Source: a virus. From it: a stretch of DNA of 64,000 nt. Where the stretch lies: IMG/VR virus record IMGVR_UViG_3300023179_000046, positions 38,990-102,989 of that record. One strand, given 5' to 3'. The position numbers were made by a program, and so were the translations under genes. Each line of letters starts with the position of its first letter. Position 1 is the first letter of the stretch. The notes beneath the pieces were generated by a model, which did no database searches, was not told the DNA's origin, and saw nothing but the letters and a program-made list of their open reading frames with translations. Positions 10,333 through 54,763 of this stretch are shown piece after piece.

Positions 10333-10606
10333 ACCCAAAACGACAAAATGTTAACAAAAAAATTCAAACCCAAAACCACAAAATGTTAACAAATTTTTAA
10401 AATGTATGGATACGCCTTCGGCATAGCGGCGCGCGCTAAGGTAGTGCGCCCATACGGGCGGCGTGTCAAGCCTTATGGCGTGTGACATACGCCACATCGT
10501 GTTTGGTTGCAGAATGGTTGCAAACGCCCGTTTCGGGTCGCTGACTGTCGGACCCCTAGTGTAGTGTTCTACTTGTCAGAGAGAAACACTAATGAAAGGT
10601 TAGACA

Positions 10607-10789
10607 ATGATCCACAAGTACCAAACTCGTCTCACGACCGCCGCTGCGTTGCGCGCCGGTCAAGTCCTTTACCACGGCGGGTCCATCTCGTCGGTGTCGT
10701 TCGATGGTCTTAGCGTCATCGTTCGCGCTTGCGGTAGGGAGTACACGTTCCAAGCGCGCGAGCGCGTTCGGATCTACCCTAACCTCTAG
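10607..10789 (+). CDS. Small hypothetical protein, paralog of 12002..12199
   Basis: Shared YQTRL...YHGG.I...RVRIYPNL; RBS GAAAGG. Confidence 0.85.
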   Translation: MIHKYQTRLTTAAALRAGQVLYHGGSISSVSFDGLSVIVRACGREYTFQARERVRIYPNL

Positions 10790-10871
10790 GTTGCAGTAGG
10801 GGTGCAACGTCACCCCTACTGTCGGACCCCCGTGCTAGGCTCTCACTATCAACAACAACGAAAGGCAAGAA

Positions 10872-11135
10872 ATGACCATCAAGGGCGAACGTCACCTTAT
10901 CAACTACCGGGGCAGCGTAATCTTCGCTGGCCGCTCGCCGTGGGATCTCAATCACCCTGAGAAGGCTCTAGTTCGGGTTCACATCAACGGCCAGTGCTAC
11001 TCGGACGGCGTATGGTCAGACACTCGCACCGATGAGGCGATGGACTACATCGACCGCATCCTAGGCACCTATGGCCCCGACCTTATGCCACAGGGCAGGC
11101 TTGCCCAGTGGATTGTCGAACGCGCCAACGTCTGA
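10872..11135 (+). CDS. Hypothetical protein
   Basis: Own promoter and RBS GAAAGG. Confidence 0.8.
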   Translation: MTIKGERHLINYRGSVIFAGRSPWDLNHPEKALVRVHINGQCYSDGVWSDTRTDEAMDYIDRILGTYGPDLMPQGRLAQWIVERANV

Positions 11136-11177
11136 CCCCTGCACTACCCCTGCAATATCAAACACTAACGAAAGGTA

Positions 11178-11417
11178 ATGCCCATGTATTCATCCGGTGT
11201 CAACGCTTATGGACACGCTGTGGAGTTGGAACACTACACGCGCTTTGTCTACTCGGAGGATGGTCTAGATGAGACCGTTGTGCCGTGCGGTTTCGTTGGA
11301 ATGGTGGATGCATCATTCGATGGGTCTAACGGTATTCTTGACTGCCCCGCCTGTGGCGATGAAATCGAAATCGAAGATGGTAAAGCCCATTGGGCCGATG
11401 CTTGGATTAGTGCCTAA
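11178..11417 (+). CDS. Hypothetical protein with CPACG motif
   Basis: RBS GAAAGG; Zn-ribbon-like. Confidence 0.75.
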   Translation: MPMYSSGVNAYGHAVELEHYTRFVYSEDGLDETVVPCGFVGMVDASFDGSNGILDCPACGDEIEIEDGKAHWADAWISA

Positions 11418-11445
11418 TCATTCTCTAGAAAGAAAGAAGAAATAA

Positions 11446-11595
11446 ATGATGATGAAATACATTGACACATTCCCGCTTTGCGAGCATTGCGATATCGAAA
11501 TGACCGAAGAATGCAACTTCGGATATCGCCACTGGCAATGCAACTGCATTGTTTGTAAAGAATGTCTATGTGCATTCATCGCCCCAATGCATTAG
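11446..11595 (+). CDS. Cys-rich micro-protein (below ORF cut-off)
   Basis: MMMKYIDTFPLCEHC...QCNCIVCKECLCAFIAPMH; followed by hairpin 11595-11620. Confidence 0.6.
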   Translation: MMMKYIDTFPLCEHCDIEMTEECNFGYRHWQCNCIVCKECLCAFIAPMH

Positions 11596-12001
11596 GGGGG
11601 ATATTCTAATATTCCCCCCGCCATTGTTTGATAAAAGAATAGCGAATAAAAAGAATGCATAAAAGAATGCATTCTAAAATAAAAAAGAATGCGATTTGAC
11701 ATTTTTTTAGAATGCGGGCAAGTACTTTGCCCGCGAAATTAATACTTGTCAATGCTTTAAGATAACGATTATGTAACGCTTTTGTAAATGCATTTATTTA
11801 ATTCATGAATAACAATTCAATAACAATTCAATAAACATATTCATGAATAATATGCATAACCATGCATAATATACACACATGGCATGTGATGTAGGTCACA
11901 TCGGCTTAGGTTGCAGAACGGTTGCAAACAGCCCGTTTAGACAAACTACTGTCAGACCCCCATGCTAGACTGATACCATCAACAACAAGAAAGGCAAGAC
12001 A

Positions 12002-12199
12002 ATGACTAAGACCAACGTTCGTTACCAGACCCGCCTAGTGGCCGCCCGCAATTTGCAGGTCGGCACCGTGTGCTACCACGGGGGCGAGATTGTCTCGCGC
12101 GTGCCCAAGAACGGCATCGGAATCGTTGTCACGTTCCGTGACGGTTCCGAGCGTTACTTTGCATACTCTGATCGGGTCAGAATCTACCCCAATCTCTGA
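12002..12199 (+). CDS. Small hypothetical protein, paralog of 10607..10789
   Basis: Shared motifs; promoter at 11950. Confidence 0.85.
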   Translation: MTKTNVRYQTRLVAARNLQVGTVCYHGGEIVSRVPKNGIGIVVTFRDGSERYFAYSDRVRIYPNL

Positions 12200-12251
12200 C
12201 CTGTCAGCCCCCCATGCTAGGCTCTATCAACAACAACGAAAGGTAATCAAA

Positions 12252-12362
12252 ATGTGGGAAATCATCTGTGAATTCGGATCGTGCAAGAACGTTGCAGAGG
12301 TCACCTACCCCGATGGTCGGGGAGATCAAATCCACTATTGCGGATTCCACGAACCGAATTAG
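12252..12362 (+). CDS. Micro-protein (MWEIICEFGSC...YCGFH)
   Basis: Promoter at 12202, RBS GAAAGG. Confidence 0.65.
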   Translation: MWEIICEFGSCKNVAEVTYPDGRGDQIHYCGFHEPN

Positions 12363-12391
12363 GTTCTCCCAACAACAAGAAAGGCAACACC

Positions 12392-12520
12392 ATGAATCAG
12401 GACATATGGGACCAACTCAATGACCTGCACTGGCAGGATGAGTCGCTCTGGTGCCCCCAATGCTCCGAGTGCTCTCAGCCGTGGCCCTGCCTCACCCGTC
12501 AACTCCTAGACCGTCTCTAA
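12392..12520 (+). CDS. Micro-protein, paralog of 14772..14918
   Basis: CSECSQPWPCLTRQLL vs CNECGKSWPCPTRWLL. Confidence 0.75.
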   Translation: MNQDIWDQLNDLHWQDESLWCPQCSECSQPWPCLTRQLLDRL

Positions 12521-12535
12521 AGAAAAGGTAATACA

Positions 12536-12721
12536 ATGATCGTTCACAAATCAATTTCGTACAATGAGTACTTCAATTCCGTTGGCCTTGACCAATGCAT
12601 TCCCTGTAACGAAATGTACATTGTTCTGGAATGCATTGAATGCGGCGATACAATTGGCTGCTACTATTGTGAGGATGACTATTCTATTCCTCACGATTGT
12701 TTCGCATACATTTCGGAATAA
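12536..12721 (+). CDS. Cys-rich hypothetical protein
   Basis: Three CxxC motifs; RBS AAGG. Confidence 0.7.
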   Translation: MIVHKSISYNEYFNSVGLDQCIPCNEMYIVLECIECGDTIGCYYCEDDYSIPHDCFAYISE

Positions 12722-12928
12722 ATAGAATACCCGCCGAAATTAGCGGGTAATTCTTTTCCAAAAAAGAATGCAATTTGACTAAATTTTAAAAGGCGGGCAA
12801 GTTCTTGCCCGCTTGACCTATCTCTGTCAAGCCTTACGTTGCATACATTACATAGGCTTTTTGGCTTGCCATTGTCGGCCCCACCGTGTAGAGTTTGGCT
12901 ACCAACCCAACGAGCGAGAGGCCCGCCC

Positions 12929-13078
12929 ATGTTTGACGACCGCACCCCCGCGCTGGAAGAAATTGCCGAAATGTGGCTCTACGATTGGGCCGTCCTCTGG
13001 GCCGCGAACGAGTATTTCCCTGAGGATTGGGAGGACCGCGACCCGGCTGAATGGCTGGACGACGCGCCAGAATTCTAA
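12929..13078 (+). CDS. Acidic micro-protein, paralog of 14189..14365
   Basis: Shared PE.WEDRDPAEWLDDAP and near-identical 5' UTR; sole gene in its module. Confidence 0.8.
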   Translation: MFDDRTPALEEIAEMWLYDWAVLWAANEYFPEDWEDRDPAEWLDDAPEF

Positions 13079-13291
13079 AACCCTTGCCCCTTCGGGGGCA
13101 AGCGGGTAAGTACTTGCCCGCGCAGAGCGCGCTGTCAAGTACTTACGATAACGATTAAGTAACGCATTTATATTCACATTTATTGCATATTATTCATGGT
13201 TGCAGAATGGTAGCAAGATCAGTTTGGGTCTTGTGAACTGTCGGACCCCCATGCTACGCTGGCTCTATCAACAACGACGAAAGGTGATCGA

Positions 13292-13516
13292 ATGATTCCC
13301 CTCCCGCCCATTCCCAACGATGCAATTAACGAGGCTACGGCAGAAGTATTCGCCATCACAAACTCGCTCACCCTAGCCGCACGGGTAGGACACGATGCAC
13401 TAAACGCTGCCCTGCCTTACATTGTTATTGCGACGCTGCGCCACTTTGCTGACTGGAACCCCGATGGTGGACTTGACTTGCTGGCCGACGAGATTGAGGG
13501 GGAACTAAACAAATGA
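13292..13516 (+). CDS. Hypothetical protein
   Basis: Promoter at 13239, RBS GAAAGG. Confidence 0.75.
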   Translation: MIPLPPIPNDAINEATAEVFAITNSLTLAARVGHDALNAALPYIVIATLRHFADWNPDGGLDLLADEIEGELNK

Positions 13517-13681
13517 CCACCCTACGCTCATTCTGCGTTTGCCTTCACGAATCCTACATGCGATTCCAGTATAATGAAGAAACCGGGCTTATTCATTGCC
13601 CCAAATGCAATTACCCGTCGTGGTACAGCCTGTACCCCGAAGAACTGTCTCAATCAGAATACTAGACAACGGAGAAATAAA

Positions 13682-13870
13682 ATGACCTACACCATCATTA
13701 GCAACAAGGCACAATGCGGAGAATGCGGATTCATTATCGAATCCCGCCACCGCCACGACTTCGCCTCCTGTAAATGTGGTAACATCTTCGTTGACGGAGG
13801 AAAAGAATACCTCCGCAGAGGATTCAAGAACGCAGACACATTCATCGAATTGTCAGAAACAGAGGGATAA
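13682..13870 (+). CDS. Common small phage Zn-binding protein
   Basis: AQCGECG..IES.HRHDF..CKCG...VDGG..YLRR pattern; RBS GGAG. Confidence 0.8.
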   Translation: MTYTIISNKAQCGECGFIIESRHRHDFASCKCGNIFVDGGKEYLRRGFKNADTFIELSETEG

Positions 13871-14188
13871 TAACTAATGATGCGCTCCCGCCGAAATAGG
13901 GCACTATTGAAAAGCGCAGCCTGCCCGTGGTATTGCTGCTGCGAATTGGAACGCAACCGAACATATCGCACCCGCGAAAAAAACAATTGGCGTAAATGGC
14001 GAAAAGAATACTAGAGAGCCGCTTGACCCTTCGGGGTCAAGCGGGCAAGTATTTCCCCGCGCGAAATACTTTGTCAACCTCTTACGATGTGGCTTACGTC
14101 ACACAGAAATAACACTGTTTTGAGTTGCATCTGTCAGTCCCGCCCTGTATCGTTCTACCTACCAACCCACCGAGCGAGAGGCACGCCC

Positions 14189-14365
14189 ATGCTGCACCCC
14201 ACCACCGACCAGTTCCTGCCCGAAGAATGGGAGGACCGCGACCCCGCCGAGTGGCTGGACGACGCGCCCGATGACGAGCCTCCCATGCCCGAGGACGACG
14301 AGGACTGGGGGGACCATTGGGAGGACGCCGCCGCCGAATATTTCTTATTCGGAGGTGACTACTAA
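14189..14365 (+). CDS. Acidic micro-protein, paralog of 12929..13078
   Basis: Shared motif; very D/E-rich; sole gene in its module. Confidence 0.8.
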   Translation: MLHPTTDQFLPEEWEDRDPAEWLDDAPDDEPPMPEDDEDWGDHWEDAAAEYFLFGGDY

Positions 14366-14543
14366 AACCCTTGCCCCTTCGGGGGCAAGCGGGTAAGTAC
14401 TTGCCCACGGCAAGTACTTAGTCAACACCTTACGATGTGACATACGACACACTAAAATAACGCTGTTTGGGGTTCCATATGTCAGACCCATCCGGTAAAG
14501 TTCTACCTGTCAGCAAGAAACCCCAACCGAAAGGAAGTGCCCC

Positions 14544-14702
14544 GTGGGAATCTCATCCCCCACCGTCATCGTCTCCACCGAAATCTGGTCCACCAAGCAC
14601 GGCAAGGTCACCAAGGCCGTCGTTCGTACCCCCAACGGCACCTTCCTTGGAGCCACCAACCAGACCGCCGCGATTGCCCCGGTTGTAGTTGGTCGTCGGT
14701 AA
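14544..14702 (+). CDS. 52-aa protein missed by the ORF track, paralog of 20958..21122
   Basis: GTG start after GAAAGGA; STEIWSTKHGKVTKAVVRTPNGTFLGATNQTAAIAP; hairpin follows. Confidence 0.85.
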   Translation: MGISSPTVIVSTEIWSTKHGKVTKAVVRTPNGTFLGATNQTAAIAPVVVGRR

Positions 14703-14771
14703 ATAGATCGAACAATGGCCCCCCGCATTGTTCGGGGGGCATTGTTGTTACTAAAAGAATAGGATAAAGAA

Positions 14772-14918
14772 ATGTCATCAGTCTCCGACACGCTTGACGA
14801 ACTTTTCGAAATGCATGGCCCCGACCTTAGCAATTCGTGGATGCCCCCGTACCTCTGCAACGAGTGCGGAAAGTCATGGCCGTGCCCGACGCGCTGGCTG
14901 CTGAACCATCTAGCGTAA
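14772..14918 (+). CDS. Micro-protein, paralog of 12392..12520
   Basis: CxxC...WPC.TR.LL motif; RBS AGGA. Confidence 0.7.
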   Translation: MSSVSDTLDELFEMHGPDLSNSWMPPYLCNECGKSWPCPTRWLLNHLA

Positions 14919-15049
14919 CGATGCTTGACCCTTCGGGGTCAAGCGGGCAAGTACTTGCCCGCCAAAGGCGGGCTGTCAAGTACTTACGATGTGACATACG
15001 ACACACGATTATGCTTCCATTTGTCGGCCCGCTGTGGTAGATTGCTCTC

Positions 15050-15762
15050 ATGACACAGACACTCACCCGCAGCAAAGACCGCAAGGTCGCCAACCTAGTT
15101 TCCCCTAATGGCAAGTCGGCAGTAATTGCTAATTCATTCGGTATTCCCGCCGGTAAGCAATTCTCTTGCCCCTCTGCCACCGATTTCTGTTCCACCATTT
15201 GCTACGCTGGCAAACTGGAGAAGATTTACACTAACGTCAAGTCTGCGCTAATTCGCAATTGGGAAGCGTTGCAGGATAAGTCCACCGAAGAATTGTATGA
15301 CATTCTTTCGGGAATGATCGCAGAATTCAATTCGGAATGTGACAAGCGCGGAGCCGATAAACTATTCCGTATCCATTGGGACGGTGATTTCTTCGCCCCG
15401 CATTACACCGCCGCATGGTCTAAGGTAATTGCAAACAACCCACAGATTCAATTCTGGGTCTATACTCGCGTTGCCACCGCTGCCCTATTCTTGCACGCGC
15501 GCAAGTATTCCAACCTTGGATTGTATTTCTCTGCCGACCCTGACAATATTGAGGCTGCCCGCCTATTAGAGTCTAAAGGCATCAATATTGCCTATGTCGA
15601 TAAGTCATTCGCTCAGGGTAAAGAACAATTCCCCAACGCTACCCGCTGCCCGAGAACAATAAGGCACTCCCGCTAATCACCGATAAGGGATCAGCCTGTG
15701 CCCGTTGCGGATTGTGTATCAATGGCCGCAAGTCCGTGCTATTCTCCACTAGTAAGAAGTGA
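15050..15762 (+). pseudogene. Gp88-like Cys-motif (radical-SAM-like) protein with a 1-nt frameshift near 15650
   Basis: SCPSAT.FC..ICYA and FRIHWDGDFF; expected C-terminus (CPENNK...CARCGLC...KK) continues in another frame to TGA 15760-15762; apparently leaderless start. Confidence 0.75.
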
Positions 15763-15847
15763 GCATCCTAGACGTAATTGTGTTTCTATTCGTCTATCTC
15801 CCCGCAATGATTGGCATGTTCATAGTAATACCATTTCTAATTGCATT

Positions 15848-15905
15848 CATCTTGCATAAAGAATAGCGGTCATCTTGCATAAAGAATAGCGGTCATCTTG
15901 CATAA
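15848..15905. repeat. 23-bp tandem repeat, 2.5 copies
   Basis: CATCTTGCATAAAGAATAGCGGT at 15848 and 15871, partial at 15894. Confidence 0.9.
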
Positions 15906-16131
15906 TAGTTAACGGTGGGGCGGCTAATGTCGCCCCACCTAAGTACTTGACAGCCCGCCTGTCGGCGGGCAAGTACTTGCCCGCAGGGCAAGCACTTGTC
16001 AATACCTTACGATGTGATCTTTGACACGTTTTTTAGGTTGCAGAATGGTTGCAGGTGGTAGGGCACTGTCAGTCGGCTGTGCTAATCTTCTCTCAGTCGA
16101 AAGGTTCGGCTACACAAGAACAGGAGTCACC

Positions 16132-16389
16132 ATGTGGCAGTTTGACGCAGCGTGCGACACGCAAGACACCGAAATCTTCTTCTCTGAACTCCGCAGCAAG
16201 GTTGTCAAGGCTAAGGCAATCTGCGCCACATGCCCCGTTCGTAGCCAATGCCTCTCATTCGCTATTGCCGAAGATATCGACACCGGAATCTTCGGAGGCC
16301 TCACCCCCGCCGAGCGTAAAGAATTGTTGCGCCCTAAGAACAACGAAGGCCCCCGCGCCCAATGGGAAATCGACCTACTTGACTCGTAA
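16132..16389 (+). CDS. whiB: WhiB-family transcription factor
   Basis: AAC...FFS...AKAICATCPVRSQC...GIFGGLTPAER; RBS AGGAG. Confidence 0.93.
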   Translation: MWQFDAACDTQDTEIFFSELRSKVVKAKAICATCPVRSQCLSFAIAEDIDTGIFGGLTPAERKELLRPKNNEGPRAQWEIDLLDS

Positions 16390-16424
16390 TCCTGCAACAT
16401 CAAACAACTAATAAGGAGAAACAA

Positions 16425-16760
16425 ATGGGAATTATTCAGCACGACGCCGTTCTCGTCACATTCAGCGACTACGCAGAATCGCGGGGCACATTCGAACTTG
16501 AGAAATTGCGCGCTCTCCTGCCCGTAGAGGTCGCAAGCCTGCTCTCTGTCACCGATGCCGTATCCAACGGATACCGTACCCTATTCTTTGCCCCCGATGG
16601 GTCTAAGGAGGGATGGGAAACTTCTAACGATGGCGACGACGCCCGTGACATTATTCGCCAATACTGCGAAGAAACGTTGCCCTATTGCGAAGTTATTGTA
16701 GTTTCCTATGGAGAACTGGGAAACAGAATTTGGGATTACCCCGACGGATATGTAAACTAA
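16425..16760 (+). CDS. Hypothetical protein
   Basis: RBS AAGGAG; [11 protein letters not shown] motif. Confidence 0.8.
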
Positions 16761-16942
16761 ACAATGGCACGATAATGCCGAAATTGGGCGAACGCGCGCC
16801 GGTGGTTGTGTTGTATCTGCGCGGTCTGCTGGGTGTGCCGACTTTGCCGTGATGCGGCCTTTCGGACCCCCGGATCTTTGGAACGCCAATAGCCTGCAAA
16901 CCCCCTGGTCTTTGGAACGTAAGTTGGTAGAGTTCAACCACG

Positions 16943-17240
16943 GCGATCCTTCGCGGTCCGGCCGCGTGGTCGCCAACATGGAAGCCTCGCTCGGCGTTCC
17001 CACCGCAACGAGCGTGCGCGGCGTGCCAGCGAAGTTGCTCATTGACAACCGAATCGTCATCAACAACCACCTCGCGCGCGCACGGCCGACAGTTGAGGCC
17101 AAGGAGGCGGCGTGGGCAGCAGCAGTCGAGAGTGACGAGTTGTCCAACGCGATCCTCGGCGCCACCGTGGGGGGCTTCAACCAGCCCGATCAGCGTGACC
17201 TGCTTCGTCCGTTCGTGGACAAGTACGTCGCCGCCCTGTC
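16943..17240 (+). other. High-GC mosaic of bacterial gene fragments (kgd/sucA-like then pepN-like)
   Basis: [37 protein letters not shown] resembles actinobacterial Kgd; [12 protein letters not shown]...[19 protein letters not shown] resembles the PepN C-terminal domain. Confidence 0.75.
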
Positions 17241-17278
17241 ACGGCGGAGGTCACGGGTTCGAATCCCGTTAGAGTCGC
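17229..17278 (+). tRNA. tRNA-Asp(GTC), 3' half only
   Basis: CCGCC-CTGTCAC-GGCGG anticodon arm, GGTTCGAATCC T arm, TAGAGTCG acceptor strand; no 5' half upstream. Confidence 0.8.
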
Positions 17279-17563
17279 TTGACACCCGCCCTTCGGGCGG
17301 GTAAGTACTTGCCCGCCAACGGCGGGCTGTCAAGTACTTTACGTTGTGACATTCACCACACATTTTTTGCCGTTTATCCTTGACTCTAGGATAGCCGTAC
17401 TGTAAAGTACATACCATGAAGAACAAGCGCAGAGAGCAGAAGCAGAAAGAATACGTCGAACACGTCCAGAATCTCCGCAGAGGTTCTACCACTGACCGTC
17501 ACAAGTCCGTCAAGGATTACCGCCGTAAGAATAAGTCAAACACTCTAGGATGGGAGAAAGAAT

Positions 17564-17962
17564 ATGCGTGACATTATTGTGTTCCACCCCGGCACAGGTA
17601 CTATCCTGCCCCTGAACGATGAGGTTTACCTTATCGACTATGCCTCCCTTAGCGAAGAAGAACAGGGAATGGTTGACTACGGCAACATCGACCTTGACGA
17701 AATCGAAACCTACCGTTTGTCCAACCACCTTGTCGGCTATCAGTACTTTGGCGACGAGATTGACGACTCCGATGACTACCTTGTTGGCATCCCGACTACC
17801 TCCATCCCGCTTGACGTTGTGGTTGACCCTAACGAGGACTTTGGCGAGTTGCTTGACGACGACGAAGATGAGGACTTTGGCGATTCGGAAGCGTGGACGG
17901 AAGAAGAAATAGAAGATCTCAAGAAAGTATTAGCAGAATGGACGCCCCCGGCACCCGAATGA
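17564..17962 (+). CDS. Highly acidic hypothetical protein
   Basis: D/E-rich, RBS GGAG; downstream of a TTGACT-N17-TAAAGT promoter at ~17380. Confidence 0.75.
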   Translation: MRDIIVFHPGTGTILPLNDEVYLIDYASLSEEEQGMVDYGNIDLDEIETYRLSNHLVGYQYFGDEIDDSDDYLVGIPTTSIPLDVVVDPNEDFGELLDDDEDEDFGDSEAWTEEEIEDLKKVLAEWTPPAPE

Positions 17963-18395
17963 GCGCATACGCTGTACTTGCAATCATAGTTTTAACTTTC
18001 GCTCCCGCCCTCACATACTACCTAGGCTATAAGCAGGGTAGATCAGACCTAAACTATGAATGGGGTAAAGATGCCTAATCTAGAATACATTGGCTCGCTA
18101 GCCCACTACCACGGGCCATGCGAAATCGTAGACGAAGCCTACACACGACAGGGCCGCTACTCCATTGTTCTCCCCAACGGCAAAATGCTAATCAACGTCC
18201 GCCCCCAATCCATTCTCATAATCCAAGACTAAACTGCTTGACCCTTCGGGGTCAAGCGGGTAAGTACTTGCCCGCAAGGCAAGCACTTGTCAACCCCTTA
18301 CGATGTGACATTACGCACACCAAAAAAGGTTACAATTCTGGCCTCCTTGCCGTAAAGTTTGTCCTGTCAGAAAGCCCCCCACATAAGGAGTCACA

Positions 18396-18914
18396 GTGCC
18401 CAACTGGTGCAGCAACAGTATCCGAGTCAGCCCCAAGGGCTACAACTTGGCTATCTCTTACTCATTCATGCTCGCGCTAATGTCATACTACCCATTCTTC
18501 ACACTCTCCGCTGTCAAGGGCAAGGCACCCAACGACACCGACTCCTATGACTGGAATGTCAAGAACTATGGCACCAAGTGGGACATTGACCCGGTGGCAT
18601 GGAAGATTGAGATTGACGATGTAGACTATTGGTACACCCTATGGGTTACCTTTGACACCGCATGGTCCCCGGCCACACCCGTCGTAGAACAACTGTCCAT
18701 CGAATATCCCCAATTGGTATTCACCCACGCCTACTGCGAAATGGGAATGGACTACCTAGGCGTAGACCAATGGCAAGCGGGGGAAAAGACTGTAATTGAG
18801 GACAGCGCACCATCTGAATATGATTGGGACGACGAAGATCCCTACTCTATGCCCGAAACCCCCTCAGACCTTGCTGAGTTTCTAGAGGCAAACCGCATCC
18901 ACCTAGGAGGATAA
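18396..18914 (+). CDS. DUF1281/YubB-like ferredoxin-fold protein
   Basis: MPNWCSN...DWNVKNYGTKWD...FDTAWSP. Confidence 0.85.
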   Translation: MPNWCSNSIRVSPKGYNLAISYSFMLALMSYYPFFTLSAVKGKAPNDTDSYDWNVKNYGTKWDIDPVAWKIEIDDVDYWYTLWVTFDTAWSPATPVVEQLSIEYPQLVFTHAYCEMGMDYLGVDQWQAGEKTVIEDSAPSEYDWDDEDPYSMPETPSDLAEFLEANRIHLGG

Positions 18915-18917
18915 CCA

Positions 18918-19130
18918 ATGGTATTCCAAGAAGCCTACGGAGAACTAACTAAAGAACAATGGAGACTCTACAAGAAACACTCCATTACTCCCGCCGAACA
19001 CTACATGCTAGAATCATACGCAAACTATGACGCCCAACAAATAATTCAAATAATCAAAAACTCCATAAACAAAGCAGGCAAACTCTCCCCCTCATTCCTT
19101 ATGAGCGCAATTGCAGAAATAAACAACTAA
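18918..19130 (+). CDS. Hypothetical protein
   Basis: RBS AGGAGG. Confidence 0.75.
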   Translation: MVFQEAYGELTKEQWRLYKKHSITPAEHYMLESYANYDAQQIIQIIKNSINKAGKLSPSFLMSAIAEINN

Positions 19131-19320
19131 CAAGCCCTTGCCCCTTCGGGGGCAAGCGGGTAAGTACTTGCCCGCGCGGAGCGCGGCTGTCAAGTACTTT
19201 ACGTTGTGACTTACGACACACTAAAATAACTACAAATATCCTAGAAAAACCCTTCCGTTTGTCAGACTGATGATGTAGTCTATGACTACAAAGTTAGCCA
19301 CTACCCACTAGGAGATTCAC

Positions 19321-20331
19321 ATGCATGGTCTAGAAACCAATGGCACAGAGGTCGCTTTCGCCCTCCGTGGTGCCCCCGCGTGGCACAACCTCGCAAACAA
19401 GACTTTCGGTGCCGATGAGACGGTCACTACCTCGCAGATGCTTGACGCTGCCATGCTTTCCAACTGGAACATCCAACTGCACGCCGTTTCGGAGTACGCG
19501 CCCGAGTCATTCCGTTTCTCGTCCGACTCGTACATGGTCACCCGTACCAACCCGTTCGACGGTGGCACTGACGTTCTCGCCACCGTTGGCGAGCGTTACA
19601 CTGTCGTTCAGAACGAGAGCCTGTTTGAGTTTGCCGATCACATTCTGGACGGCGGCGCATCGTGGGAGTCGGCTGGCTCCATCAAGGGCGGTCGTCGTGT
19701 GTTCGGTTCGCTCGTCATCCCGCGCGAGATTGTTCTGGACCCCAACGGTGCCAACGACAAGACTGTCACCTACCTGCTCGTCAACACGTCGCACGACGGA
19801 TCAACCGCTGTGCAGGCTTCCATCACCCCCGTTCGCGTGGTCTGCCAGAACACGCTCAACCTTGCGCTCCACAAGGTCAAGCAGACCTACAAGATCCGTC
19901 ACACTCAGACCGTGGGCGGTAAGGTTGCTGCGGCTCAGTCTGCGCTTGGCCTGACCTACACCTACATGGACGCTTTCAGTGCAGAGGTTACTGCCCTGTT
20001 TGAGCAGTCCATCACCGATCAGACTTTCGACTCCATCGTCAAGGCTATCTACCCTCAGCCTGAGAAGGACGCTAAGGGTGCCCTGACCAAGTGGACGAAC
20101 AAGGTCGATCTCGTTCAGGACTTGTACCGTACCTCCCCCACTAACGCCAACATCAAGGGCACCGCGTGGGGCGCGCTCAACGCTCTCACTGAGCGCCTTG
20201 ACTGGTTCCGCAACGGTCGCGGCGATGACTCTAAGGAGAACGTGGCCGCTGCCGCTACTGGCTTCGACCCCGTGACCAACACGGAGAAGAACCGCATCCT
20301 GTCCGTTGTCAAGGAACTTTCTTTCGCCTAG
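19321..20331 (+). CDS. DUF932 (phage/plasmid-like TIGR03299-type) protein
   Basis: PAWHNL, VG.RY.VVQN, SHDGS, TPVRVVCQNTL, IRHT, GTAWGALNA.TE. Confidence 0.92.
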   Translation: MHGLETNGTEVAFALRGAPAWHNLANKTFGADETVTTSQMLDAAMLSNWNIQLHAVSEYAPESFRFSSDSYMVTRTNPFDGGTDVLATVGERYTVVQNESLFEFADHILDGGASWESAGSIKGGRRVFGSLVIPREIVLDPNGANDKTVTYLLVNTSHDGSTAVQASITPVRVVCQNTLNLALHKVKQTYKIRHTQTVGGKVAAAQSALGLTYTYMDAFSAEVTALFEQSITDQTFDSIVKAIYPQPEKDAKGALTKWTNKVDLVQDLYRTSPTNANIKGTAWGALNALTERLDWFRNGRGDDSKENVAAAATGFDPVTNTEKNRILSVVKELSFA

Positions 20332-20566
20332 AGCGAACATGCAGCAGCACCCCCCGGCTCACGCCGGGGGGAGTTGTTGTCAAATTGTTACCTAAAAGTA
20401 CTTGACAAAATTTTTTTGCGGGCAAGTACTTGACCGCGCGAAGCGCGGCTGTCAAGTACTTTACGGTGTGTATTACGACACACATTTTTTAGCACAAAAA
20501 TGTATTGACCTTGGGGTCGGGGGATGCTAAGGTTTACCTACAACGACAGAGAGGGAGGTACAGGAT

Positions 20567-20764
20567 ATGGTTGTTACTATTCAGGCACCGTCATCTGCCG
20601 CACAGAAGCGTGCTTTTAGTCAGTGTATGATTATGGGTTTGGAAGCGACTGTTTTGGAGGACAATTGTATTGATTTGGTTGTTCAGCAGTTGTGGAAGGC
20701 TAAGCATGTTGCTGGTATGGTTGATGGTGAGATTGTTGCGGTTCATGACCGGGTTAAGATTTAG
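20567..20764 (+). CDS. Hypothetical protein
   Basis: TTGACC-N17-TAAGGT promoter at ~20505 and RBS GGAGG. Confidence 0.75.
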   Translation: MVVTIQAPSSAAQKRAFSQCMIMGLEATVLEDNCIDLVVQQLWKAKHVAGMVDGEIVAVHDRVKI

Positions 20765-20957
20765 GAGTTTGTATGGCTGACAGTAATGATGCGCGTGCGA
20801 TTCAGATTTTTACTCAGGCTTGGAATAGTGGTTATGATGACGCTATTGCTGAGGTTATTGATTATTTATCTTCATTGTATGATATGACTAATAGTTTTGC
20901 GGAAAAGCAGTTGATTGATTCTATTATTGCCAATTTTGAGTCTAACTAAGGAGTATT

Positions 20958-21122
20958 ATGTCTAACATTGTTTCTACCCCCGCCGTTGTTGTTTCTACTG
21001 AGGTTTGGTCTACCAAGCACGGTAAGGTGACGAAGGCTGTTGTTCGCACCCCGTCCGGTACGTTCCTTGGTGCTACTAATCAGACTGCGGCGATTGCGCC
21101 GATGATTGTAGGTCGCCGCTAG
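20958..21122 (+). CDS. 54-aa protein missed by the ORF track, paralog of 14544..14702
   Basis: RBS AAGGAG; STEVWSTKHGKVTKAVVRTPSGTFLGATNQTAAIAP. Confidence 0.85.
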   Translation: MSNIVSTPAVVVSTEVWSTKHGKVTKAVVRTPSGTFLGATNQTAAIAPMIVGRR

Positions 21123-21134
21123 ATTTAAGTCATT

Positions 21135-21160
21135 AGGGGGAGGCTGAGCCTCCCCCTTTT
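21135..21160 (+). terminator. Intrinsic terminator
   Basis: AGGGGGAGGC-TGA-GCCTCCCCCT followed by TTT. Confidence 0.8.
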
Positions 21161-21167
21161 GGCGTGC

Positions 21168-21249
21168 GCGGGTGTGGCGGAATTGGCACACGCAGCAAAC
21201 TTAAAATTTGCCACCGAAAGGTATACGGGTTCAACTCCCGTCACCCGCA
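21168..21249 (+). tRNA. tRNA-Leu(TAA)
   Basis: Acceptor GCGGGTG/CACCCGC, D loop GGAATTGG, anticodon arm GCAAA-CTTAAAA-TTTGC, variable arm, GGTTCAACTCC. Confidence 0.92.
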
Positions 21250-21273
21250 CGCTAGTTTAGTTTAAGGAGAGAT

Positions 21274-21489
21274 ATGCCTAAATGTTTTGATTGTAATAAT
21301 GTTACAATGTTTGAATTTTCTACTACACAATGGGATACAGTTTACTTTGACCCCGAGGGATTTATCGTTGACACCAAGAGGCTCTATAAGGTAGACTCAT
21401 TCCTACCGCCCACCTGTGGGCGGTGTGAAAGTACGAATATTGATGCCACATTCCTTGATGCTGCACTATTGGAGGTAGAAGATGAATGA
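21274..21489 (+). CDS. Hypothetical protein with two CxxC motifs
   Basis: RBS AAGGAG. Confidence 0.75.
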   Translation: MPKCFDCNNVTMFEFSTTQWDTVYFDPEGFIVDTKRLYKVDSFLPPTCGRCESTNIDATFLDAALLEVEDE

Positions 21490-21826
21490 TAGGGACTTCC
21501 TAAGGAGTTTAGGTTTTGTTGTTGGTGAGCGTGGTCGTTTCTCTAAGGAGATGGTGGCTGCCCTAGCATCTCGCAATTCTAAGACTGAGACATCTACCAA
21601 GTTTGACAAGATTGATGAGGCGGGACTTCCTGAGAAACTAAAGCGAACACCTGTCAGGGAAGCCGAACAACTATATGGCTATGACAAGTATGGTCACAAG
21701 ATTGCTTTCGTACTTTGTAATTCATGTAATCAGCATATGATTTGGTGTACCTGCAAGGCAGGTATTCTCGCCCCGTCCCATATTATTCGTAGCGAAAACC
21801 CCCTAGTCACTGTCCGTGCGGCATGA
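21482..21826 (+). CDS. Hypothetical protein, Lsr2-DNA-binding-like N-terminus
   Basis: R.FLRS.GFVVGERGRFS resembles the Lsr2 RGR motif; C-terminal Cys cluster. Confidence 0.55.
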   Translation: MNDRDFLRSLGFVVGERGRFSKEMVAALASRNSKTETSTKFDKIDEAGLPEKLKRTPVREAEQLYGYDKYGHKIAFVLCNSCNQHMIWCTCKAGILAPSHIIRSENPLVTVRAA

Positions 21827-21859
21827 TACTATTAGACACCATCGACACTAGGAGGCAGT

Positions 21860-22192
21860 ATGGCTAGGACCACGGAAGATAAGGTAGCCAAGTATCTGAT
21901 TGACGGATGCGCGGATTCTCGTCTCAACGAGGTTGCGTTGGCTCACACTATGGGGAGGCAGGCGTATGACGTACAGGCGCGGTTCTGGAACACTCTGGTT
22001 TCTTACATTTACTTTCATGCTCACAATTATGAGCATGGTCTATTTGACGAAGGTACATATGAGATTGCTAGATTGTCTAAGAAGATCAAGGACTTAGCGT
22101 TTGCTGATGAGCGTAAGTATTCCTCTGATCCCGTTCATGAACGGTATGGAGATTTTGAGTTGCAAGATGGTCAATTGCGTCAAGGGTTTTAA
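21860..22192 (+). CDS. Hypothetical protein
   Basis: RBS AGGAGG; promoter variant at 21811. Confidence 0.75.
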   Translation: MARTTEDKVAKYLIDGCADSRLNEVALAHTMGRQAYDVQARFWNTLVSYIYFHAHNYEHGLFDEGTYEIARLSKKIKDLAFADERKYSSDPVHERYGDFELQDGQLRQGF

Positions 22193-31188: not shown

Positions 31189-31489
31189 GTATCTTCCTCA
31201 ATTTCTTCCAAGTATCCTCAGTCTTATGAGAATTCTGATCCTTGTCTATTCTACCCAAGTTTAAATATACCCCGCCCCAAACACCAAACTCTTTACCTTT
31301 AATGCCTTCTTGGAGACAGAATTTAGCAACGGGGCAGGTAGAACAAATAGAATCTACCTGCTGAGCATGTACCTTATTAGATTCATAGTCATCATAAAAC
31401 CAATTGACTGACATATTCTTACAACTAGCAAGTTGATACCACGCAACGTGATCTTCTTCTAGCCCTAAGTTTTCTAATGAATCACTCAT
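31169..31489 (-). CDS. whiB: WhiB-family transcription factor
   Basis: ASC...ICSTCPVAKFC...FGVWGG. Confidence 0.9.
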   Translation of the reverse strand: MSDSLENLGLEEDHVAWYQLASCKNMSVNWFYDDYESNKVHAQQVDSICSTCPVAKFCLQEGIKGKEFGVWGGVYLNLGRIDKDQNSHKTEDTWKKLRKIHGRGQL

Positions 31490-38679: not shown

Positions 38680-39120
38680 CTATTGAGACACAGTACTTCG
38701 TAGTTGCCAATCCCAAAACTGATGCTTGTCAATACGTTCAGCGAGGAAATTAGCGACACCCTGCTCGTTTTCAGCGTCAGCAACAATAAAAGTTTCTTTC
38801 AACAAATCAATAATCTTTGAATTAGTTTCAATCAAAACTCTGACCATTTCCATAGCATCAAGAGTCGGGGTTTCATCAAACTTGATAGTAGAATTCATCT
38901 GCCAACTACGCAAGCCAAACGGTGCGTACACTCCAAGTTTACGCAAATTTTCAGCATAAGCATCAATAGAATCAAAAACATCTTCATAGATTTCTAAGAA
39001 AAACGCATGTAGTTCTTTAAAGAACGGCCCTCTAACATTCCAATGAAAGCCATGAGACTGTGCATACATGCCAACAGCATTGGCTTGCAGGTTTACCAAT
39101 TTTTCTACCAAGAAAGACAT
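38680..39120 (-). CDS. dps: Dps-family ferritin-like protein
   Basis: HGFHWNV.GP.F..LH.F..EIY...D..AE..R.LG. Confidence 0.93.
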   Translation of the reverse strand: MSFLVEKLVNLQANAVGMYAQSHGFHWNVRGPFFKELHAFFLEIYEDVFDSIDAYAENLRKLGVYAPFGLRSWQMNSTIKFDETPTLDAMEMVRVLIETNSKIIDLLKETFIVADAENEQGVANFLAERIDKHQFWDWQLRSTVSQ

Positions 39121-54620: not shown

Positions 54621-54763
54621 TGCCTTATAAAACCCGCCTTAGTTAAGGCTCTTTGAATAGTCATATGACTACAACCTGCCTCTTTAGCAATCTCAATTAT
54701 ATTCTTCTTCTCAACAACATATCTCTGATACAGCCAAATCCTAGACTGATAAAGTTTACTCAC
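54617..54763 (-). CDS. Small HTH protein (below ORF cut-off)
   Basis: MSKLYQSRIWLYQRYV...EIAKEAGCSHMTIQRAL. Confidence 0.75.
   Translation of the reverse strand: MSKLYQSRIWLYQRYVVEKKNIIEIAKEAGCSHMTIQRALTKAGFIRQ

Follow-up and report, generated by a model that had tools for sequence, protein, structure and literature searches.

Candidate PafBC-type promoters ahead of a small-gene block in an uncultured lineage of large phages

The PafBC, or RecA-NDp, promoters carry a TGTCRG box with an invariant GTC triplet, located 10 nt before a sigmaA -10 element TANNNT, and have no conserved -35 (Gamulin 2004; Muller 2018, 2021; Schilling 2025). Their in vivo consensus is tGTCgg(N10)tA(N3)T, again with a sigmaA -10 and no -35, and the GTC triplet is read by the helix-turn-helix (HTH) of PafB (PMC8635444). 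RecA-NDp promoters have been reported beyond mycobacteria, in other Actinobacteria, and the level of PafBC is constant, the protein being switched on by a ligand (PMC8223512); this ligand is single-stranded DNA (ssDNA), in the form of tails, gaps or fragments, and single-stranded RNA is inactive (PMC11804915). Here we analyse a group of such sites in a stretch of 64,000 nt (hereafter, the window) from the IMG/VR virus record IMGVR_UViG_3300023179_000046, positions 38,990 to 102,989, for which a first-pass annotation had proposed that early phage genes are wired to the PafBC promoter of the host. That proposal considered single-stranded nucleic acid in general as the activating signal, which is correct for DNA but not for RNA. 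In sigma adaptation, ssDNA-loaded PafBC is inserted between domain 4 of sigmaA and the DNA; to our knowledge, PafBC-mediated adaptation has so far been known only as a chromosomal stress response.

The REP13E12 repeats of Mycobacterium tuberculosis are insertion elements with phage attachment sites that DNA damage induces and that carry RecA_NDp (PMC3381160). They resemble the window in having a mobile-element gene set behind the same promoter type, but they are chromosomal repeats, are also under LexA and do not represent the expression programme of an infecting phage. The middle promoters of phage T4, whose comparison with PafBC promoters has been drawn before (PMC8635444), combine a MotA box at -30 with a -10 and depend on AsiA and MotA. 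In both cases the -35 gives way to a box located approximately 10-12 bp from a sigma70-type -10, and phage gene expression would be timed in this way; however, the T4 box is unrelated, and T4 brings its own factors and remodels domain 4 of sigma, whereas no phage factor was found here and the box belongs to the host. Conjugative plasmids contain ssDNA-dependent early promoters (Frpo-type) in their leading regions, where the ssDNA itself folds into a promoter. The first genes of an incoming element would be tied to ssDNA there as well as here, although in the window a host ssDNA sensor would act on a double-stranded promoter.

We scanned the window for the pattern TGTCRG-N10-TANNNT, using dinucleotide shuffles (n=100) as background. 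Eleven exact sites were found, all on the + strand and spanning positions 10546-19281, as compared with 1.13 expected; the maximum among shuffles was five sites, and none of the 100 attained 11. The full virus record (102,989 bp) contained 13 sites versus 1.9 expected. All 11 window sites had been reported by the first-pass annotation at the same coordinates and strand, and its statement that they lie just ahead of genes also held, since every site precedes a same-strand start codon, at 7-44 nt from the end of the -10. A TGTCCG variant that it had added at 21811 was likewise present, with an extended -10; having a C at the R position, it is weaker than the other sites.

10546..10567, + strand: P1, TGTCGG box, N10 and -10 TAGTGT; first gene 10607-10789 (60 amino acids, aa)
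10820..10841, + strand: P2, TGTCGG-ACCCCC with extended -10 TGCTAGGCT; operon start at 10872
11950..11971, + strand: P3, TGTCAG-ACCCCC with extended -10 TGCTAGACT; gene 12002-12199
12202..12223, + strand: P4, TGTCAG-CCCCCC with TGCTAGGCT; small Cys-rich genes starting at 12252
12873..12894, + strand: P5, TGTCGG with -10 TAGAGT and a weak TTGCCA 17 bp before the -10; gene 12929-13078
13239..13260, + strand: P6, TGTCGG-ACCCCC with TGCTACGCT; operon starting at 13292
14132..14153, + strand: P7, TGTCAG with -10 TATCGT; gene 14189-14365
14480..14501, + strand: P8, TGTCAG with -10 TAAAGT; gene 14544-14702
15022..15043, + strand: P9, TGTCGG with extended -10 TGGTAGATT; GP88-family gene 15050-15676
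16067..16088, + strand: P10, TGTCAG with extended -10 TGCTAATCT; WhiB gene 16132-16389, then a longer operon
19260..19281, + strand: P11, TGTCAG with -10 TAGTCT; DUF932 gene 19321-20331
21811..21832, + strand: candidate variant, TGTCCG with extended -10 TGATACTAT; gene 21860-22192

The motif and its spacing are identical to the published PafBC consensus, in agreement with the RecA-NDp assignment made in the first-pass annotation (PMC8635444), and the GTC triplet is shared by all 11 window sites and by the 355 unique sites that related phages contribute (see below). As in PafBC promoters, the box stands at exactly 10 nt from a functional-type -10, TANNNT. A TTGACA-like hexamer 16-18 bp before the -10, typical of canonical sigmaA promoters, did not appear as a consensus and was found only in two sibling cassettes:

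17380..17408, + strand: canonical sigmaA promoter TTGACT-N17-TAAAGT; leaderless gene 17416-17571
20505..20533, + strand: canonical sigmaA promoter TTGACC-N17-(TGC)TAAGGT; operon with small genes from 20567, a tRNA-Leu (21168-21250) and an Lsr2-like gene (21482-21826)

These are the canonical promoters that had been assigned to two other modules and both are present, but the pattern TTGAC-N17-TANNNT is not enriched genome-wide (seven found versus 5.5 expected), and we rejected its genome-wide use for lack of statistical support. The cassettes of the window share their upstream layout, consisting of hairpins, a CRP-like box and a promoter, and at equivalent positions 11 of them have a -26 box and two an ordinary -35, indicating that the TGTCRG box substitutes for the -35. 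Such a swap within cassettes follows the 'hybrid promoter' logic known from sigma adaptation. An extended -10 (TGn) is present in six of the 11 sites, and P9 is leaderless, with its -10 ending at 15043 and the ATG at 15050. Duplication links some of the sites (P2/P3/P4/P6 and P5/P7); box and spacing nevertheless stay conserved despite diverged flanks, and the same is true across the 355 unique sites of related phages.

To look for relatives, a stricter 22-mer from the window (TGTCRGNCCCCCNTGCTAGRCT) was searched in IMG/VR and matched 84 contigs, whose loci contain 506 sites in 851 kb with a strong strand bias per locus. These contigs occur in lake samples. All contigs of at least 30 kb (n=46) scale to genomes of ~100-120 kb, indicating a single phage lineage, and in its complete members the sites are grouped in one single-strand module of 3-10 kb. 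The logo of the 355 unique sites reads AA-TGTCAG-W-S-S-C-nnn-T-G-n-TA-r-A-M-T, with a C-rich spacer between the -26 box and an extended -10; after it come an A-rich leader and then a ribosome-binding site. There is no -35 consensus, with at most 0.25 bit of information at that position over the 355 sites, and a G occupies -14 in 83% of them. The first five positions of the box are near-invariant, and boxes with a single mismatch are rare (12 of 21 at the last G). An exact box at the right spacing accompanied 263 of 1274 TGnTAnnnT elements on the promoter strand, as compared with nine of 912 on the opposite strand.

In these relatives, the distance between the -10 and the nearest following start codon shows two peaks, at 6-7 nt (37 leaderless) and at 24-36 nt, which indicates that the -10 is genuine; Actinobacteria typically have leaderless mRNAs. 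The genes behind the box are mostly unknowns of 35-90 aa, and homologs of GP88 and DUF932 have the box ahead in 12 loci each. Judging from their sequence, the TGTCRG sites are very probably genuine sigmaA-type promoters in which a box centred near -26 replaces the -35, often together with an extended -10. Motif enrichment across actinophages, a scan suggested in the first-pass annotation, was not observed: 13 cultured ones (three from Streptomyces, seven from Mycobacterium, one from Rhodococcus and two from Microbacterium) contained 0-2 sites each, indicating that the feature is specific to this lineage. BLAST comparisons of promoter plus leader with cultured phages gave chance-level matches only.

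The strict phage 22-mer has only four matches in 185,579 species genomes, approximately the chance number across all prokaryotes, and the four are in Actinomycetota, upstream of rpsF-ssb, of a gene encoding a RecB-like nuclease plus SF1 helicase of 1247 aa (the case in two Rothia genomes) and of one unknown open reading frame (ORF). The three genomes checked, one of Rothia and the other two, contain WYL pairs, in tandem or fused, together with the PafC HTH domain. When the pattern TGTCAG-N7-TGnTAnnnT was searched in 401 Actinomycetota genomes, it yielded 140 sites versus 56 for the reversed control, with TGTCAGACCCCC.TGCTAG as a recurrent class. Among the 19 sites that were fetched, five lie before rpsF, two before radA and one before recA, and others before a Druantia DruA gene, LAGLIDADG and Uma2 endonucleases and small toxin-antitoxin-like genes. 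The recurrent class was seen ahead of rpsF (four of the 19), radA and recA. A PafBC-like match was detected in all 15 published genomes with fetched motif loci, as compared with 70% of the sample (282 of 401). The tallies include unpublished genomes, 13 in the PafBC survey and two in the motif count (G339, G004, G151, G123, G242, G177, G021, G229, G346, G091, G051, G271, G085), from which no fetched locus or gene assignment derives and on which no specific claim depends. Motif matches in the low-GC genomes of this sample were discarded because they looked random, being intragenic or near unrelated genes.

The phage promoters thus appear to copy the box, spacer and -10 context of host DNA-damage promoters, despite the AT-rich background of the phage, and their extended sequence is also found before recA, radA and rpsF-ssb in genomes bearing pafBC. 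They differ from the described PafBC promoters in that they occur in a large, apparently virulent phage, with 6-26 promoters per module ahead of tiny genes of unknown function; they are also much richer in extended -10 elements, have AA upstream instead of host-type bases and bear stacked CRP-like and GGTTGCA elements further upstream, and here the dependence on PafBC is putative. Among the host loci, that with the DruA gene (L150, G223:C1:1185615-1188400, Actinomycetota) has the PafBC-type box TGTCAGCCCTTCGTGATATCGT directly before it, a hint that the damage regulon includes a phage-defence gene.

Who reads the box was approached by searching for a phage activator. No WYL domain scored over the cut-off in the record itself or among 46 relatives, of which 11 have a completeness of at least 90%, and Sigma70_r2 had no match in the record or in the relatives searched. 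A PafB-HTH protein query likewise found nothing in 12 near-complete phage genomes, although this is a weak test because the query had no positive control. Altogether, the activator searches (WYL, sigma region 2 and PafB-HTH; the MotA and AsiA families were not searched) were negative in the 12 near-complete genomes, and none of the small proteins of the canonical cassettes matched an HTH or DNA-binding family. That neither a WYL nor a sigma gene was found in the phage speaks for a host reader; we know of no reader of this box other than PafBC.

PafBC-dependent transcription by the host machinery is our best explanation, and one that we hold to be just about probable; PafBC as the reader, its presence in the host, the early timing and the source of ssDNA, including the triggering by incoming DNA suggested in the first-pass annotation, are all inferred. 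When ssDNA arises in the infected cell, host RNA polymerase (RNAP) with sigmaA, together with host PafBC, would transcribe the one-strand block of small genes, comprising WhiB, GP88, DUF932 and many ORFs of 35-90 aa. Possible sources of this ssDNA are phage DNA that has been resected or nicked, replication intermediates and damage caused by host defences. Under this scheme the phage could do without a dedicated activator, and the alarm of the host would itself set off the host-takeover module. It had also been proposed that the sites might titrate PafBC, which is doubtful for naked promoter copies because PafBC without RNAP-sigmaA was published not to bind motif DNA.

Several observations weigh against PafBC-dependent transcription. 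All motif contigs big enough to judge belong to one lineage, and a lineage-specific phage factor or virion protein could read the box; the closest cultured relatives (the three Streptomyces phages) and the ten other actinophages, with PafBC hosts, show no enrichment. On the host side, ~30% of the sampled Actinomycetota have no PafBC match, and three of five examined genomes of 1.3 Mb have no WYL gene (46-54% GC in two and 38% in the third), two of these three having LexA-type boxes before recA; the other two (37-39% GC) contain tandem WYL pairs, and one of them has TGTCGC-N10-TATTAT 35 nt before recA. Five of the 11 window promoters have a weak TTSCNT hexamer (3-4 of 6 positions match) at 17-bp spacing, suggesting that some promoters may fire without an activator, and the CRP-like box and the upstream GGTTGCA repeats show that other regulators also act here. 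Finally, the early timing of the block is inferred from gene content and strand organisation only.

Alternatively, a phage-encoded or virion-delivered adaptor could read the TGTCRG box and recruit host RNAP-sigmaA, in the manner of MotA/AsiA in T4, which we consider rather unlikely. Such an adaptor would mimic the specificity of PafB or would have diverged past detection, and the block would consist of middle genes activated by a product of the canonical cassettes or by a gene elsewhere. It would fit with a motif that is confined to one phage lineage and is absent, as an enriched feature, from the 13 cultured actinophages, and with sigmaA promoters at 17380 and 20505 that could act first; most block proteins have no known family, and the lineage also conserves a WhiB, from a family that binds domain 4 of sigmaA:

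31268-31441, - strand: second WhiB-family gene, outside the array; type kept in all 12 near-complete lineage members

Nevertheless, the 12 near-complete genomes gave no match to WYL, to Sigma70_r2 or to the weak PafB-HTH-like query, no HTH family was found among the small proteins of the canonical cassettes, and the combination of box, C-rich spacer and TGCTAG fits the host recA, radA and rpsF promoters far more closely than an independent phage system would require.

It is also conceivable, and in our opinion decidedly unlikely, that the block depends on PafBC as a conditional counter-defence or stress module, silent unless ssDNA accumulates through restriction, CRISPR or another nuclease followed by resection, or through prior damage. 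PafBC indeed requires ssDNA tails, gaps or fragments, the gene content is like that of variable accessory cassettes, with paralogs and high turnover and including DUF932 and an Api92-like domain, and the host defence gene DruA also lies behind such a box; additionally, a link between pafBC and resistance to mycobacteriophages has been reported (Rafique 2025, as cited in PMC12848934). Conserved regulators, however, would be expected to be expressed in every infection, and the block contains WhiB after P10, and GP88 and DUF932, each of which has the box ahead in 12 loci; none of the genes has a known anti-defence role. That the sigmaA holoenzyme alone uses the extended -10, with TGTCRG being the site of an unrelated host or phage regulator (a repressor site or half-site), is very improbable: it would agree with the TGn in six of 11 window sites, the G at -14 in the relatives, the weak -35-like hexamers and a region crowded with other operator-like elements, but five of the 11 sites have no TGn, the fixed 10-nt spacing and five near-invariant box positions are typical of a promoter element, and this reading would leave to coincidence the agreement with both the PafBC consensus and host DNA-repair promoters.

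Several other elements accompany the promoters of the cassettes:

10481, 11885, 14088, 14436, 14990, 16013, 17345, 18304, 19205 and 20467: CRP/GlxR-like boxes
10505-10522, 10789-10806, 11909-11926, 13198-13215 and 16036-16053: GGTTGCA-N4-GGTTGCA direct repeats
13070-13149, 14009-14088, 14357-14436, 14911-14990, 17265-17344, 18224-18303 and 19124-19203: inter-cassette dyads (~80 nt)
15940, 20418 and 22391: further dyad positions

The CRP/GlxR-like boxes, TGTGA-N6-(T/A/C)CACA and 16 nt each, lie upstream of most cassette promoters. Their centres, measured from the predicted start, are at -52.5, -62.5, -64.5 (twice), -65.5, -74.5, -75.5 and -85.5 (twice), approximately one helical turn apart in the fashion of class I activators. 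The GGTTGCA direct repeat is found 25-40 nt upstream of five -26 boxes (P1, the P2 variant, P3, P6 and P10) and is not conserved in the logo of the relatives' sites. The inter-cassette dyad comprises a TTCG-loop hairpin (CTTGACCC-TTCG-GGGTCAAG), followed by GCGGGCAAGTACTTGCCCGC and further CAAGTACTTG palindromes, and resembles a terminator lacking a T-run, an array of operators, or both. Short AAGAATGC-type repeats and a threefold 23-nt tandem repeat occur within AT-rich spacers just before some of the dyads (11640-11700, 12765-12775 and 15839-15916).

Three pairs of paralogs are located in separate cassettes (10607-10789 and 12002-12199; 12929-13078 and 14189-14365; 14544-14702 and 20958-21122), indicating joint duplication of promoter and gene inside the array. 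A truncated tRNA-like stretch at 17216-17269 (+ strand), inside ORF 16849-17304, matches the Rfam tRNA model with 35 bits over model positions 8-63; ARAGORN made no call there, and the stretch is 95% identical over 44 nt to the tRNA-Asp of an Erwinia jumbo phage.

The virus is an actinophage of ~110 kb from an uncultured lineage, as marked by its WhiB, Lsr2-like, GP88, DUF932 and DnaE genes. Its DnaE-type polymerase shares 55% identity with the polymerases of Streptomyces phages in the Stanwilliamsviridae, and WhiB is present in 12 of 12 near-complete lineage records. The mycobacterial setting adopted in the first-pass annotation found no support: the window has ~40% GC, the lineage is uncultured and nothing links the virus to Mycobacterium. 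Host searches were also negative, with the phage tRNA-Leu showing at most 81% identity over its length among 401 Actinomycetota (one 38-nt fragment reached 92%), and the GC-rich DUF932 gene reaching a best identity of 37%. A megablast of the whole block matched in a tRNA-like fragment alone. The motif block (10.4-20.4 kb) has 52% GC versus 40% elsewhere, and GC at third codon positions (GC3) is 0.56-0.74 in array genes versus 0.39-0.41 in DnaE and ribonucleotide reductase, which suggests either recent acquisition of the block from GC-richer sources or different selection. We had considered a low-GC host from the low GC of the phage and dropped it, given that the DnaE regions of the Streptomyces relatives have 49-54% GC and that the array GC3 is well apart from the ~0.40 of the core.

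Lysogeny, in the form of a damage-induced prophage, is unlikely because a tyrosine integrase was not found in the record or in four complete relatives, serine recombinases not having been searched. A weak Sigma70_r4-like HTH at 54635-54733 (- strand), scoring 15 bits and below the cut-off, lies in a 53-aa open frame that may encode a small DNA-binding protein.

We found no paper in the literature searched, whose coverage is incomplete and could have missed an earlier report, that ties PafBC or the RecA-NDp motif to phage promoters; the closest precedents are the REP13E12 elements and the 2025 report on pafBC and mycobacteriophage resistance. Our tentative proposal is that a lineage of large virulent actinophages ceded its host-takeover block to PafBC by means of cassette promoters that copy those of recA, radA and ssb in the host almost perfectly; the damage alarm would serve as the signal of phage DNA inside the cell, and the host would be unable to silence the block without disabling its own damage response. 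If true, this would provide a clear example of a virulent phage that relies on a damage sensor of the host, instead of factors of its own, to time its genes, and would tie the PafBC regulon to phage-host conflict, in line with the link to phage resistance and with the Druantia gene behind the same box. The lineage would also provide compact, strong and naturally varied PafBC-type promoters with which to probe the contributions of the spacer and the extended -10.

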